Shown piece by piece: positions 4,222-16,310 of a stretch of DNA of 16,360 bases. The position numbers and the translations under genes are program-made. Origin of the DNA: a virus. The notes under the pieces were generated by a model. The model did not search any database and had not been told where the DNA came from. It saw nothing but the letters and a program-made list of their open reading frames with translations. Location: UHGV virus genome UHGV-0072940; one strand, 5' to 3'. Within the stretch, counting starts at the first letter, position 1, and each line of letters starts with the position of its first letter.

Positions 4222-4929
4222 ATGGTTCAGAATGAAAAAGTGCGCAAAGAATTCGCCCAGCGGCTAGCGCAAGCCTGTAAAGAAGCTGGTCTTGATGAAC
4301 ATGGTAGGGGAATGGCTATAGCCCGTGCCCTTTCTCTTTCGTCCAAAGGCGTTAGCAAATGGTTTAATGCTGAGTCTTTACCGCGTCAGGAAAAAATGAA
4401 TGCGCTTGCGAAATTTCTAAACGTTGATGTTGTTTGGCTTCAGCACGGCACTTCGTTAAATGGAGCGAATGATGAAGATACTCTTTCATTTGTTGGCAAA
4501 TTAAAAAAAGGGTTAGTGCGCGTGGTTGGTGAGGCAATTCTTGGTGTTGATGGTGCCATCGAGATGACCGAAGAGCGCGATGGGTGGCTCAAAATTTATA
4601 GCGATGATCCAGATGCCTTTGGTCTTCGTGTGAAAGGAGACAGCATGTGGCCCAGAATAAAATCAGGAGAATATGTACTCATTGAGCCTAACACCAAAGT
4701 ATTCCCGGGTGATGAGGTGTTTGTCAGAACCGTTGAAGGACACAACATGATTAAGGTTCTTGGCTATGACAGAGATGGAGAATACCAATTTACAAGCATT
4801 AACCAGGATCACAGGCCTATAACGTTGCCTTATCATCAAGTAGCAAAGGTGGAGTATGTAGCTGGTATTCTGAAGCAATCTCGCCATCTGGATGACATCG
4901 AGGCAAGGGAGTGGCTGAAAAGTTCGTGA
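4222..4929 (+). CDS. cI: CI-type prophage repressor (N-terminal HTH, C-terminal S24/LexA-like peptidase domain)
   Basis: 235 aa. N-terminal HTH region, C-terminal GDSMWP serine motif with a downstream Lys (NMIKVLGYD). Divergent from cro across an operator region. Not lambda immunity by sequence. Confidence 0.85.
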   Translation: MVQNEKVRKEFAQRLAQACKEAGLDEHGRGMAIARALSLSSKGVSKWFNAESLPRQEKMNALAKFLNVDVVWLQHGTSLNGANDEDTLSFVGKLKKGLVRVVGEAILGVDGAIEMTEERDGWLKIYSDDPDAFGLRVKGDSMWPRIKSGEYVLIEPNTKVFPGDEVFVRTVEGHNMIKVLGYDRDGEYQFTSINQDHRPITLPYHQVAKVEYVAGILKQSRHLDDIEAREWLKSS

Positions 4930-4989
4930 CTTCATCGTCACATAGCTGGTAACCAGTGGCCAGAAGAAACGTTTGGGTGAGGAGGATAG

Positions 4990-5331
4990 ATGGCGTTCAC
5001 TGACCTTGAATATCAAGCGGTCAAAAAAGAAGTTCACCAATTCATTGAAAGCATAAGGCCGCCTGAACATATCCGCAATGAACTGGATATTGTTTATAGC
5101 ATCAATGACCAAACGATAGATATCGGCGAACAGCGCCCCGTGTGGCAGGGCAACCCAGGTGAAACAAACATCCTGCCATCAGCAAGAATCAAGTACATAC
5201 GTTCTCTGGATAGATGGAAAATCTATTGGATGCGGAAGGATATGAAATGGCATCAGTACAGTACTGAACTTTCGCTGACTGATGCGCTTGAGCTTGTGCG
5301 TGCTGACCCGGATTGCTGCTTCTTCGGATGA
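4990..5331 (+). CDS. hypothetical protein A (113 aa), first gene of the cI-linked operon
   Basis: Strong RBS GAGGAGG 5 nt upstream of ATG 4990. No terminator between the cI stop (4929) and this gene. No recognisable motif. Confidence 0.6.
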   Translation: MAFTDLEYQAVKKEVHQFIESIRPPEHIRNELDIVYSINDQTIDIGEQRPVWQGNPGETNILPSARIKYIRSLDRWKIYWMRKDMKWHQYSTELSLTDALELVRADPDCCFFG

Positions 5332-5401
5332 GTGAAGAGACGTTTGGATGATGGATGGTCGCAGAGATGCTCGTAGAGCATACAGCGATGCAGGAGAATT
5401 T

Positions 5402-5836
5402 ATGGCACTTAATTTAGAAAGAATATCTTTTATAACCCCATTTGATAGCAGCGAAGAACCCAACCAACCGACGCTTAATTTTACATGCAATGAATTTCCT
5501 GCGCGGCTATCAATTGATTTCAGGGTTGGTATGATCGGGTTGAAACCAAATTCAAGATATAATTTGGGTATTATGGTAATCCCCGCGCACCTAATTATAA
5601 AAAAAGGTGAGGAAATTCAATTCCCTGACGGCTCTTCGGAATCAGTTTCACTTTTCATCGATACGAAAGATAGCCATTTTGAAACAGGGGTTGGCGGACA
5701 GGTAATAGTAACATTGAAAGAAATTAGGGTCCCAGCTAAAGGGCTGTATAGTGTTATAGGGATATTGCAAGATAATGAAGACCCTAAAAATGAACTTCAT
5801 AAAAATGAATCATTTTTCACCGTAGAGCTATTATGA
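5402..5836 (+). CDS. hypothetical protein B (144 aa), second gene of the cI-linked operon
   Basis: Start placed at the internal ATG 5402 preceded by AGGAG (six-frame ORF begins at 5348). AT-rich coding sequence. Stop overlaps the next start (ATGA at 5833..5836). Confidence 0.55.
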   Translation: MALNLERISFITPFDSSEEPNQPTLNFTCNEFPARLSIDFRVGMIGLKPNSRYNLGIMVIPAHLIIKKGEEIQFPDGSSESVSLFIDTKDSHFETGVGGQVIVTLKEIRVPAKGLYSVIGILQDNEDPKNELHKNESFFTVELL

Positions 5837-6453
5837 GTGACGACAGTAATTTAAATAATCATGGAAAGCAAGACACCAACATATCTGAAAGCCGGAGGTT
5901 GAAGGTTGTTGGCGGTTCTGATTTTGAGGCTGAATTTGATAATTCTCCCACCAAGGTGCAAAATAATTACATAAAACCGCCACAAACGGAGGAAGAAGTG
6001 GGAACGATCAGCAGAGAGGAACTTGATGCTCGCTTAGCTGCTAATAAAGCAGAGATGGAGTCTATTGCTTCCTCCATTAGGGCTGACATGGCTCTATCTC
6101 GTGAAAGCGTTAATGTCCAATTTGCATCACTTAATGCAGCCATAAGCTCTCTATCGTCCAAGATCGATGGAAAGATGGATAGCGCTGCTGGCGATATAAA
6201 AGCAATTAATGGGAGATTCGAAGGAATTCAAGGACAAATAACAGGGGTTAATACCGCAATTAGTGGTGTTCAGTCGGGTATTTCTATACGATTAGCCATT
6301 TTTAGTGTCATTATCGCTGTAATAGTTGCGATTCCCGGGCTGGTATCAGCTTTAAAGTCAGACCACGCACCTTTGCAACAGCCTTCCACTTTGCAAGCGC
6401 CGCCACAAAATACCCAGCCAACAGACAACAAAAAAATCACTCCCCAGCATTAA
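5833..6453 (+). CDS. hypothetical membrane-anchored protein C (206 aa), third gene of the cI-linked operon
   Basis: Translationally coupled to B. Polar N-terminus, long Ala/Ser/Ile-rich helical segment, one hydrophobic span LAIFSVIIAVIVAIPGLVSAL near the C-terminus, then a Pro/Gln-rich tail. Confidence 0.6.
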   Translation: MSDDSNLNNHGKQDTNISESRRLKVVGGSDFEAEFDNSPTKVQNNYIKPPQTEEEVGTISREELDARLAANKAEMESIASSIRADMALSRESVNVQFASLNAAISSLSSKIDGKMDSAAGDIKAINGRFEGIQGQITGVNTAISGVQSGISIRLAIFSVIIAVIVAIPGLVSALKSDHAPLQQPSTLQAPPQNTQPTDNKKITPQH

Positions 6454-6460
6454 CGCATTA

Positions 6461-6488
6461 ACCCGGCTTCCGCGCCGGGTTTTCTTTG
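6461..6488 (+). terminator. rho-independent terminator closing the cI operon
   Basis: Stem CCCGGC (6463..6468) / GCCGGG (6474..6479), 5-nt loop, then TTTTCTTTG, immediately after the stop of gene C. Confidence 0.65.
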
Positions 6489-14301: not shown

Positions 14302-15588
14302 ATGAGTAACGTATCATACCCGACAGGCGTTGAAAACCATGGAGGATCACTCCGTATATGGTTTCACTATAATGGCAAACGTGTCAGAGAAAACCTCGGT
14401 GTTCCTGACACCGCCAAAAACCGGAAGATCGCAGGTGAACTTCGCACTTCCGTTTGTTTTGCAATCAGAATGGGGAGTTTCGACTACGCCACACAGTTCC
14501 CTAATTCCCCTAACCTGAAACACTTTGGTCTGGGAAAAAGAGAGATAACCGTTAAGGCACTTTCGGAAAAATGGTTGGACCTTAAGAAAATTGAGATTTG
14601 TGCGAATGCACTTAATCGTTACCAGTCAGTAATTAAAAACATGTTGCCTATGTTGGGTGAGAAAAAACTGGTTTCATCCATAACAAAAGAGGATTTACTT
14701 TTCGCAAGGAGAGATTTGTTGACCGGTTACCAAAAGCTTTCTAATGGAAAGATTTCTTCCATAAAAGGGCGCTCAGTGGTCACAGTAAACTACTATATGA
14801 CAACCATAGCTGGAATGTTTCAATTTGCAACAGATAATGGTTATACCTCAGGAAACCCATTTAACGGTCTGGCTCCCTTAAAAAAGTCCAAGGTAAAACC
14901 AGATCCTCTCACCCGTGACGAATTTATTCGTTTTATTGAGGCTTGCCGTCATCAACAAACAAAAAACCTGTGGATTCTCGCTGTATACACGGGTATTCGT
15001 CACGGGGAGTTGGTATCGCTGGCATGGGAAGATATAGACCTTAAAGCAAGGACTATAACCATCCGTAGAAATTATACAAAACTTGGCGAATTCACTCCAC
15101 CAAAAACCGATGCAGGCACCGGAAGGACAATTCATCTGGTTCAACCAGCTATTGATGCTCTTAAAAGCCAGGCGGAAATGACCATGCTTGGAAAGCAACA
15201 TTCTGTAGAGGTGAAGCAGAGGGAATATGGGAGAACTGCTGTGCATAAATGCACTTTTGTTTTTAGTCCTCAGGTAACAAAACAGCAGCAGTTGTCCGGA
15301 CCTCACTACAAGGTTGACTCCATCAGGGAGTCATGGACAAGTATCTTAAAACGCGCAGGTCTGAGACACAGAAAATCGTACCAATCCAGGCATACTTATG
15401 CATGCTGGTCACTTGCCGCTGGAGCTAATCCTAGTTTTATCGCAAGCCAGATGGGCCACACAAACGCACAAATGGTATTCAATGTTTACGGAGCATGGAT
15501 GAAAGACAACAATCACGAACAGATAGAACTCCTTAACAAAAGACTATCTGAAAGTGTCCCATGTATGCCCCATAAGAAAGTGGGGTAA
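14302..15588 (+). CDS. int: tyrosine-type site-specific integrase
   Basis: 428 aa. The C-terminal catalytic region carries the conserved residues in the expected order (R in YTGIRHGEL, HTYACW, GHTNAQMVFNVYGAW with the tyrosine nucleophile). GGAGG RBS. Larger than and distinct from lambda Int. Confidence 0.9.
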   Translation: MSNVSYPTGVENHGGSLRIWFHYNGKRVRENLGVPDTAKNRKIAGELRTSVCFAIRMGSFDYATQFPNSPNLKHFGLGKREITVKALSEKWLDLKKIEICANALNRYQSVIKNMLPMLGEKKLVSSITKEDLLFARRDLLTGYQKLSNGKISSIKGRSVVTVNYYMTTIAGMFQFATDNGYTSGNPFNGLAPLKKSKVKPDPLTRDEFIRFIEACRHQQTKNLWILAVYTGIRHGELVSLAWEDIDLKARTITIRRNYTKLGEFTPPKTDAGTGRTIHLVQPAIDALKSQAEMTMLGKQHSVEVKQREYGRTAVHKCTFVFSPQVTKQQQLSGPHYKVDSIRESWTSILKRAGLRHRKSYQSRHTYACWSLAAGANPSFIASQMGHTNAQMVFNVYGAWMKDNNHEQIELLNKRLSESVPCMPHKKVG

Positions 15589-15662: not shown

Positions 15663-16310
15663 TTGCTGAAACCGCAACGGACAGACGGCGGTCATCGGCT
15701 GTTCAACGATGCCGATATTGACCGGATCCGCGAGATCAAACGCTGGATCGACAACGGCGTGCAGGTCAGCAAAGTTAAAATGCTGCTCAGTAATGAAAAT
15801 GTTGATGTGCAGAACGGCTGGCGCGATCAGCAAGAAACATTACTGACTTACCTGCAAAGCGGCAATCTACATAGCCTGCGAACGTGGATCAAAGAGCGCG
15901 GTCAGGATTACCCCGCCCAGACACTCACCACACATCTGTTTATTCCTCTGCGCCGACGGCTTCAGTGCCAACAACCGACTCTCCAGGCGCTGCTGGCGAT
16001 CCTCGACGGCGTACTGATCAACTACATCGCCATTTGTCTGGCTTCGGCACGTAAAAAACAGGGTAAAGATGCGCTGGTGGTTGGCTGGAATATTCAGGAT
16101 ACCACCCGTCTGTGGCTGGAGGGCTGGATTGCCAGTCAACAAGGATGGCGCATTGATGTCCTCGCCCACTCGCTCAATCAACTACGCCCTGAACTATTCG
16201 AAGGCCGTACATTGCTGGTGTGGTGCGGTGAAAATCGAACCTCCGCCCAACAGCAGCAACTCACCAGTTGGCAAGAACAAGGCCATGATATTTTCCCACT
16301 CGGCATTTAA
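15627..16310 (+). pseudogene. mlrA: MerR-family transcriptional regulator, 5'-truncated by prophage insertion (mlrA/yehV-like)
   Basis: The frame encodes PVTLRAWQRRYGLLKPQRTDGGHRLFNDADIDRIREIKRWIDNG and continues to a stop at 16310. Upstream in frame there is no ATG or GTG before a stop at 15591, so the first ~15-20 codons of the HTH are missing. The mlrA assignment rests on recollection that Stx-type lambdoid prophages insert in yehV; the paralogue bluR cannot be excluded without a search. Confidence 0.6.

Follow-up and report, generated by a model that had tools for sequence, protein, structure and literature searches.

Genes B and C of the virus genome UHGV-0072940, whose 16,360 nucleotides (nt) make up the window analyzed here, appear from sequence comparison to be a mobile two-gene accessory module (moron) of a prophage repressor operon. 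By analogy with the other genes found in the same place, an anti-phage role of some kind is probable for this pair. The more specific reading, that B and C are a Rex-like two-component exclusion module with a membrane-damaging mechanism, is held tentatively; it is favored because the slot, the order of a soluble and then a membrane protein, and the AT-rich composition are all common to Rex. What says most about B and C is that they lie in the cI operon, at the rex position; this was overlooked by the initial annotation, whose placement of the two open reading frames (ORFs) is exact. Protein lengths are given in amino acids (aa).

5402 to 5836, plus strand: gene B, encoding a 144-aa acidic soluble protein (ORF list and homologue starts).
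5833 to 6453, plus strand: gene C, encoding a 206-aa predicted tail-anchored coiled-coil inner-membrane protein (phrog_5820, E of 1e-76; AlphaFold2 model, AF2 below).

The window is a lambdoid prophage carrying a 933W-type immunity region, as seen from Pfam and PHROG scans and from comparison with phage 933W. Its minus strand carries methylase, ninB, P, O, cII, and cro genes, and its plus strand carries, in order, cI, three small genes, a terminator, N, an AT-rich block of unknown ORFs, gam/bet/exo, further ORFs, and the integrase gene. The features that define the slot are as follows.

4222 to 4929, plus strand: cI repressor of the 933W immunity type, first gene of the cassette-bearing operon (HTH_3 and Peptidase_S24; Pfam E of 4e-16 and 1e-05).
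4963 to 4980, plus strand: putative module-boundary sequence, copy 1, GAAGAAACGTTTGGGTGA, an 18-nt direct repeat with 5334 to 5351, 89% identical.
4990 to 5331, plus strand: DUF3024 gene, 113 aa (Pfam PF11225, E of 2e-31; PADLOC candidate PDC-S43, E of 7e-42).
5334 to 5351, plus strand: putative module-boundary sequence, copy 2; on its left side, the block in common with HK542 begins at 5333.
6460 to 6491, plus strand: intrinsic terminator at the end of the cI operon (tM/Timm), with a GC-rich stem of 8 bp and then a T tract; it aligns with tM and Timm as annotated in 933W and HK542, respectively.
6672 to 6700, plus strand: pL-like promoter, TTGATA-17-CATTAT, ahead of nutL and N at the right end of the slot (position relative to the 933W annotation).
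6950 to 7333, plus strand: N antiterminator, the right neighbor of the slot (Pfam N_peptide, E of 2e-15).

Identity to 933W and to many Shiga toxin (Stx)-converting phages is 99.4% across cI, the DUF3024 gene, the operon terminator, and N; the cI of 933W is itself 99.4% identical to that of the window, and the 933W annotation places the pM promoter and the oR operators upstream of it. No terminator-like site is found on the plus strand from cI (4222 to 4929) to the hairpin at 6460 to 6481, so cI, the DUF3024 gene, B, C, and the terminator would form one operon, followed by pL, nutL, and N. The position of B and C is that of rexA and rexB in lambda. We infer that the pair is transcribed with cI from pM in the lysogen. 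The sole promoter-like site in the cassette (5936 to 5964), considered as an internal promoter for C, is no better than the shuffled expectation and was rejected.

Identity to 933W stops at 5370 and returns at 6459 (junctions at 5370/5371 and 6458/6459), and the 1,088 bp in between (5371 to 6458) replace 1,694 bp of 933W that hold orf153, stk, and orf54. The stretch from 5333 to 6532 is 98% identical in the lambda-immunity phages HK542 and HK244, where it lies directly after a lambda-type cI in place of rexAB. The 18-nt repeat flanks the DUF3024 gene in the window, and because the same sequence joins the lambda-type cI to B in HK542, it seems to act as a module-boundary sequence. The DUF3024 gene, present in 933W and missing between cI and B in HK542 and at loci L014 and L015, appears to accompany the 933W-type cI and to lie outside the B-C cassette. 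Near-identical cassettes follow at least six repressor specificity types, whose DNA-binding domains are 18 to 31% identical between types. Since the same cassette swaps with orf153-stk and with rexAB and follows all these repressor types, horizontal exchange is seen directly, and the horizontal acquisition that the initial annotation had proposed from composition is strongly supported by comparative genomics, not by composition.

Such free exchange of the cassette among at least six unrelated repressor types speaks against the alternative that B and C have no anti-phage role and tune instead the lysis-lysogeny switch of their own prophage or the membrane physiology of the host. Pairs located away from a repressor likewise oppose a repressor-tied function, and the fast turnover of partner genes resembles an arms race (both described below). 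Precedents for switch tuning do exist in this slot: Hex, which has the corresponding place in its operon, lowers RecA-dependent induction (PMC3564112), and RexA and RexB reportedly help the phage to enter lytic growth (Thomason 2021, as cited in PMC12315714). The PADLOC scans also gave no defense-domain signal in B or C, as this alternative would have it. On balance, we consider an own-switch role unlikely.

The C family comprises 28 close clusters and, in a profile search of 1.84 billion representatives (clusters at 50% identity), 286 clusters at an E value of ≤1e-3 and 101 at ≤1e-10, ranging from Escherichia coli to distant relatives. Its members are nearly always prophage-borne and mostly lie right after a repressor: the order of a cro-like gene on the opposite strand, a repressor, a small ORF, and a C homologue recurs in Cedecea, Yersinia, Pectobacterium, Salmonella, and Leclercia, as well as at the distant loci L063 and L070, and at L066 the C homologue is directly 5' of an N gene. 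A minority of pairs occupies other moron positions: some are close to tail genes, some are in the nin region, and some are in an Arc/Ant region of the immI-like kind. A scan of genome contigs with C returned one locus, in Xenorhabdus. Distant members keep the motif S/TREELDAKLxxNxAE, heptads in seven-residue steps, a C-terminal transmembrane helix, and usually the tail motif QP(I/V)(I/V)IQVP. One chromosomal copy of the cassette is present in 51 of 5,426 complete E. coli genomes (~1%), the carriers including an O55:H7 food isolate and clinical isolates. In E. coli CFSAN064035 (NZ_CP031134.1; H93), the match to B-C is split by ~780 bp annotated as an IS1A transposase, consistent with an IS1 insertion, and 72% of the cassette is left in NZ_CP027445.1 (H100); these split and partial copies look like occasional inactivations.

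The initial annotation had described both genes as more AT-rich than their flanks. This is clear for B, whose GC content of 0.375 (0.317 at third codon positions) falls in the 3rd percentile among same-length windows, and weak for C, at 0.433 (0.372 at third codon positions) and the 22nd percentile. The whole cassette has a GC content of 0.410 compared to 0.464 ± 0.041 (8th percentile), and the values for comparison are 0.452 for cI, 0.459 for the DUF3024 gene, 0.492 for N, and ~0.525 for bet/exo, placing C 2 points under cI and 9 under bet/exo. The compositional shift is real, modest, and not confined to B and C: the block at 7392 to 8871 is more AT-rich. Occupants of the slot elsewhere are AT-rich too, with GC contents of 0.40 for rexA, 0.425 for rexB, and 0.35 for stk.

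An AGGAG lies 5 nt before the ATG of B at 5402, and the same Met begins every B homologue. A longer B starting at 5348 was rejected: that start falls in the module-boundary sequence and is a GTG in HK542. The stop codon of B overlaps the start codon of C by 4 nt (ATGA), through which C appears to be translationally coupled to B. Compared to a copy at L037 on an IMG/VR contig (68% identical), both genes show a nonsynonymous divergence (dN) of 0.24 to 0.25 with saturated synonymous sites, and C compared to its Cedecea homologue shows a ratio of nonsynonymous to synonymous divergence (dN/dS) of 0.17. On these values, both are genuine genes under purifying selection.

A small protein first and a putative toxin second, with the 4-nt overlap in all B-family loci, is also the layout expected of a toxin-antitoxin-like addiction pair, in which C would be a membrane toxin and B its coupled neutralizer, and which would stabilize the prophage and might fire upon shut-off of host or prophage expression. 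Partners that vary around a conserved second gene and the compact, mobile two-gene unit would suit such a pair as well. However, B has no DNA-binding or known antitoxin fold, transcription apparently comes from the cI promoter instead of an autoregulated promoter of the pair's own, and no toxin or antitoxin family was matched in Pfam, NCBIfam, or PADLOC. We therefore regard an addiction pair as quite improbable.

Protein C has the architecture that the initial annotation had read from its sequence, a polar N-terminus, a long helical region, a single hydrophobic span, and a Pro/Gln-rich tail, which is borne out by the hydropathy profile and the AF2 model and can be divided as follows.

5833 to 6006, plus strand: residues 1 to 58 of C, a predicted disordered, family-variable N-terminus with the motif RLKVVGGSDFEAEFDN, which co-varies with the partner family (predicted local distance difference test score, pLDDT, of <50; N-terminus/partner comparison).
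6007 to 6288, plus strand: residues 59 to 152, the conserved motif SREELDARLAANKAEMESIASSIR and then heptads running into the membrane helix (invariant columns of alignment A1; heptad statistics).
6292 to 6354, plus strand: residues 154 to 174, the predicted single transmembrane helix LAIFSVIIAVIVAIPGLVSAL (Kyte-Doolittle value of 2.71 over a 19-residue window; AF2 helix at 150 to 174).
6355 to 6450, plus strand: residues 175 to 206, a Pro/Gln-rich tail, presumably periplasmic (family alignment).

The AF2 model, of low confidence, consists of disorder at residues 1 to 55, a helix at 61 to 142, a helix at 150 to 174, and a disordered tail, that is, one long helix and one transmembrane helix with no bundle. 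The heptads read IDGKMDS, AAGDIKA, INGRFEG, IQGQITG, VNTAISG, and VQSGISI. Their a and d positions across residues 59 to 152 have a hydrophobic occupancy of 0.70, compared to 0.54 in shuffled sequences, of which 8 of 2,000 reach 0.70, and the indels among homologues in alignment A1 come in seven-residue steps that change the repeat number. Near the membrane, across residues 122 to 150, Ile or Val occupies both core heptad positions (a and d). Ile or Val at both core positions favors trimers or higher oligomers under the rules for coiled coils, and the coiled coil of C would accordingly be parallel and a trimer or larger.

The span LAIFSVIIAVIVAIPGLVSAL at residues 154 to 174 is the one strong hydrophobic span of C, and the columns L154, F157, I160, I161, and A166 within it are conserved in alignment A1. 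A polar N-terminus, no signal peptide, and a single transmembrane helix at positions 154 to 174 of 206 are the marks of a tail-anchored protein, and C is thus predicted to be a tail-anchored inner-membrane protein. A conserved R/K just N-terminal of the helix is consistent with an N-in orientation. Beyond the helix by 10 to 15 residues, most members of the C family share the tail motif QP(I/V)(I/V)IQVP, which is degenerate in the window copy (QPSTLQAP) and at L047.

A cytoplasmic helical region followed by a C-terminal anchor is a layout that C shares with ElaB/YqjD/YgaM and with XhlA, and its combination of a coiled coil and a C-terminal transmembrane helix resembles XhlA-like proteins; a 104-aa variant from Xenorhabdus is of that size. 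This raises the question of whether C could be an XhlA- or holin-type lysis accessory lying near cI by chance. C, however, has no Pfam match to DUF883, XhlA, or holins at an E value of ≤1, and ElaB/YqjD/YgaM and XhlA are not known to have a dedicated upstream partner. The pair also belongs to the lysogenic operon, where it precedes the tM terminator; the late genes are on the other side, and lambdoid lysis cassettes are located elsewhere. A lysis role is thus extremely improbable.

Protein B is soluble, as the initial annotation had it, with no hydrophobic span (hydrophobicity maximum of 1.01) and no signal peptide. The AF2 model is a seven-strand beta sandwich (pLDDT of 67; predicted template modeling score of 0.61), and B is predicted to be a stand-alone immunoglobulin/fibronectin type III-like beta sandwich. 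It matches PHROG 5893 over its full length (E of 3e-50), a family listed as "unknown function." Its homologues form ~20 clusters, all from Enterobacterales, all stand-alone, and all of 141 to 160 aa.

B is only one of several proteins found in front of C. A small, closely linked gene always comes immediately 5' of C: the 4-nt overlap between B and C occurs in 36 of 36 B-family loci, and other partners range from an 11-nt overlap to a 20-nt gap. These partners fall into at least five families, between which no similarity was detected, as listed here.

Family 1: B-like beta-sandwich proteins.
Family 2 (P92 type): proteins of 92 to 97 aa.
Family 3 (P99 type): proteins of 98 to 101 aa.
Family 4: CxxC...CxxC zinc-ribbon-like proteins.
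Family 5: a 149-aa Salmonella protein.

BLASTP and hhalign did not link B to the 92-, 97-, 99-, and 149-aa partners, and a C-terminal pattern, GLY...FFF.V, common to B and the 149-aa Salmonella partner is not significant. The variable N-terminal 40 to 110 residues of C track the partner family, whereas the conserved core does not. Between the C of the window, with its B partner, and the C at L047, with a zinc-ribbon partner, identity is 79% for the core compared to 17% for the N-terminus; the core at L054, with a P99 partner, is 67 to 69% identical to those of the P92-type loci L011 and L052 compared to 40 to 42% for the P99-type loci L058 and L059. Some B-like proteins have a different partner, likewise joined by a 4-nt overlap: a shorter tail-anchored coiled-coil protein of 165 aa or, in Xenorhabdus, of 104 aa. 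Both of these variants lack the tail motif and keep the N-terminal motif (LKLVAGTDLKAGFEN and RLALVSNDILTENEG, compared to RLKVVGGSDFEAEFDN in the window). Because the N-terminus follows the partner family while the core does not, the most economical reading is that the N-terminal peptide of C is where the partner binds, the two being swapped together while the stalk and anchor stay conserved. At some loci, the repressor and the partner-C pair are separated by an additional ORF (176 aa at L063, 3055 to 4008; 70 aa at L070, 3222 to 3434; 160 aa with a hydrophobic stretch at L054, 2502 to 2984), and the module may sometimes be three-component.

Homology searches give few clues to function. B has no Pfam match at an E value of ≤1, and C has only weak coiled-coil matches at that cutoff. 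Pfam, NCBIfam, and PADLOC scans of B, C, 22 relatives of C, its distant relatives, and the partners returned nothing above threshold other than coiled-coil noise; in PADLOC-DB v2, B and the partners have no match, and C and its 22 relatives match LmuB, JetC, and LeoA at a noise level (E ≥ 1e-4). C matches phrog_5820 over its full length, a family listed as "unknown function." The label "Baculovirus PEP" found in some records (Baculo_PEP_C, PF04513) was rejected: at 19.6 bits and an E value of 0.001, compared to a gathering threshold of 38 bits, it reflects repeat composition. Sequence-profile searches of the PDB gave chance matches to TRPM7 only for B, and for C only borderline matches to SmhB and to the coiled coils of haemagglutinin HA2 and reovirus sigma-1. 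In the literature, searches on HK542, HK244, the protein accessions, and DUF3024 yielded neither a functional study nor any paper naming the two proteins.

The match to SmhB (E of 0.014 over 58 residues) is one of several to the ClyA-type toxins, the others being MakE (E of 0.0058; 15.7 bits, cutoff of 360) and MakA (E of 0.18; 10.8 bits, cutoff of 320). The likeness is weak and positionally consistent, in that the Gly/Ile-rich heptads and the hydrophobic helix of C correspond to the toxin helix and head in SmhB/AhlB and MakA/MakE. Nevertheless, C is only half as large, is devoid of the helical-bundle tail domain, and carries a single hydrophobic helix where the toxins have a hairpin. We treat this similarity as a lead only, which may be purely compositional. 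Overall, B and C fall outside the Rex, Stk, BstA, PADLOC, Baculo_PEP_C, and ClyA-toxin families.

The cI-N interval of lambdoid phages is a classic home of lysogen-expressed exclusion genes, most of whose occupants are still hypothetical, and it has been described as a mosaic hotspot (PMC8585504). Rex, Stk, and Hex are cotranscribed with the repressor and exclude or abort other phages (PMC3564112), and BstA, also downstream of a repressor, aborts phage infection (PMC8585504). The initial annotation had likened C to small membrane effectors of abortive infection or superinfection exclusion; this holds circumstantially, through the slot shared with RexAB, Stk, Hex, and BstA and the soluble-plus-membrane layout, and does not extend to homology with any known defense protein. 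The kind of element, a lysogen-expressed exclusion cassette between cI and N, is known; what is uncharacterized is this pair, along with the single-pass coiled-coil effector and the partners that swap in.

The closest likeness is to RexAB of lambda, an abortive-infection pair in which RexB, reportedly an ion channel, is switched on by the sensor RexA (PMC3564112). Phages excluded by RexAB include T4 rII, and the exclusion involves depolarization of the membrane. Both systems lie after cI and before Timm, with B-C physically replacing rexAB in HK542 and HK244, and both consist of two genes, a soluble protein and then a membrane protein, that are AT-rich relative to cI. The proteins themselves differ. 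BLASTP of B and C against lambda RexA gives chance matches only (E ≥ 0.14) and none with RexB; RexA has 279 aa compared to the 144-aa beta sandwich of B and has been reported as an RdgC-like DNA binder (as cited in PMC12315714), and RexB has 144 aa and ~4 hydrophobic segments compared to the single-pass, 206-aa C.

Stk of 933W is an allelic occupant of the same slot in an immunity region that is otherwise 99.4% identical, and it is activated by infecting HK97 to cause a self-inflicted abortive infection (Friedman 2011, as cited in PMC3564112). It is a eukaryotic-like kinase, whereas B and C have no kinase domain (Pfam E ≤ 1) and no BLASTP similarity to Stk, orf153, or orf54. The 933W slot (L001, 2678 to 4346; GC content of 0.35) contains a 153-aa ORF annotated as "RuvC-like Holliday junction resolvase" that overlaps stk and, in addition, a 54-codon ORF; the stk module may also be multigene. 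BstA of Salmonella phage BTP1 and Hex of phage 434, which excludes P22 (PMC3564112), also lie downstream of a repressor, presumably under its promoter, and have an anti-phage phenotype (PMC8585504, PMC3564112), but each is a lone cytoplasmic protein that lacks a membrane component and is not homologous to B or C. Similar in design only are gp30 and gp31 of mycobacteriophage Butters, an interacting soluble and membrane prophage pair acting against heterotypic phages (PMC7542560); these come from other hosts and another genome position, their sequences are presumably unrelated, and the system is likened by description.

From these features, we infer a topology and oligomeric state for C, binding between B and C, an anti-phage activity, and a membrane-damage step, which would fit together in the following way. 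B and C would be expressed with cI in the lysogen and would protect it from other phages. About 150 N-terminal residues of C would lie in the cytoplasm as an oligomeric coiled coil that runs straight into the transmembrane helix, leaving a short tail outside, and cytoplasmic B, kept at a fixed ratio to C by translational coupling, would dock on the variable N-terminal peptide, whose RLKVV segment is predicted to add a strand to the edge of the B sandwich. B would act as the sensor or adaptor that confers specificity by sensing a product of the infecting phage; once triggered, the C oligomer would perturb the inner membrane by leak or depolarization, and the infection would be aborted. A coiled coil continuous with the transmembrane helix and the weak ClyA-type matches give some support to C as the membrane effector.

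The same architecture would also allow superinfection exclusion without suicide, in which the stalk of C anchors B under the inner membrane to intercept phage DNA or ejection proteins or to block an entry channel, and the cell survives. With its single transmembrane helix, a long stalk of variable heptad number, and a docking peptide at the far end, C looks more like a tether than a channel; the minimal variants consist of coiled coil and anchor only, and the extracytoplasmic motif QP(I/V)(I/V)IQVP of most members suggests a contact outside the membrane. The lysogen-expressed slot is common to this reading. Nearly all of the mass of B and C is cytoplasmic, however, and the diversity of partners rather fits the sensing of intracellular phage products. 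The known injection blockers HK97 gp15, T4 Imm and Sp, and P22 SieA are not known to need a soluble partner. Exclusion by tethering without cell death is accordingly given little weight here.

Several points weigh against a Rex-like, membrane-damaging module. Neither B nor C is homologous to RexA, to RexB, to Stk, or to a PADLOC model, and the single-pass C is a weaker channel candidate than RexB with its four transmembrane segments. The similarities to alpha-toxins are far under the family thresholds, and the binding fold of B is generic, with no informative relative. The window copy of C carries a degenerate version of the tail motif. Slot occupants such as Hex and RexA can also act on the switch of their own phage, and some family members sit outside the repressor operon, at tail genes or in the nin region.

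A bolder proposal, which we consider rather doubtful, is that the C family is a widespread, unrecognized class of prophage defense, in which a conserved tail-anchored coiled-coil membrane effector is armed by small, interchangeable sensors from at least five unrelated folds through matching N-terminal docking peptides. The effector might be distantly related to the membrane-inserting head of ClyA-type toxins and act as a plug-and-play pore former working from the inside out, by which the infected cell would be killed or sealed.

If the pair does serve in defense, a single-pass, coiled-coil, tail-anchored protein would be a new effector architecture among membrane-acting defenses, and the exchange of partner and docking peptide as a unit on a conserved effector would amount to a natural sensor-swapping experiment. 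The pair could then affect which phages, Stx and therapeutic phages included, superinfect carrier strains; Stx-converting phages hold stk in the slot. B and C form a coherent, widespread, and experimentally tractable candidate system in an ordinary moron location: the 1.05-kb cassette is directly clonable, and natural isogenic comparators are at hand in 933W-type prophages with stk and in lambda-immunity phages with rexAB.

Other features of the window are of separate interest. The DUF3024 gene, common to 933W and the Stx phages, matches the PADLOC phage-defense candidate PDC-S43, and the cI operon may hold two independent accessory modules, this gene and B-C. Downstream of N, the block at 7392 to 8871 has a GC content of 0.378, below that of B-C, and contains four ORFs of 156, 98, 52, and 122 aa; the 156-aa ORF, the only one of the block scanned against PHROGs, matches phrog_1636. 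This block may be another accessory region, in the pL operon. At L013, RefSeq annotates a 69-nt pseudogene, "regulator, incomplete," at 5364 to 5432, corresponding to window positions 7265 to 7333; the N ORF of the window is intact, with 127 aa, and the pseudogene call is probably an annotation gap. The far end of the window holds the integrase.

14302 to 15588, plus strand: integrase, adjoining truncated mlrA.

The 5' end of mlrA (yehV; 15663 to 16310) is cut off by the prophage, with positions 29 to 243 of the 243-position MlrA profile matched, and the prophage is thus inserted in this host gene. The yehV gene is a known integration site of Stx-type prophages, and insertion there impairs curli regulation.

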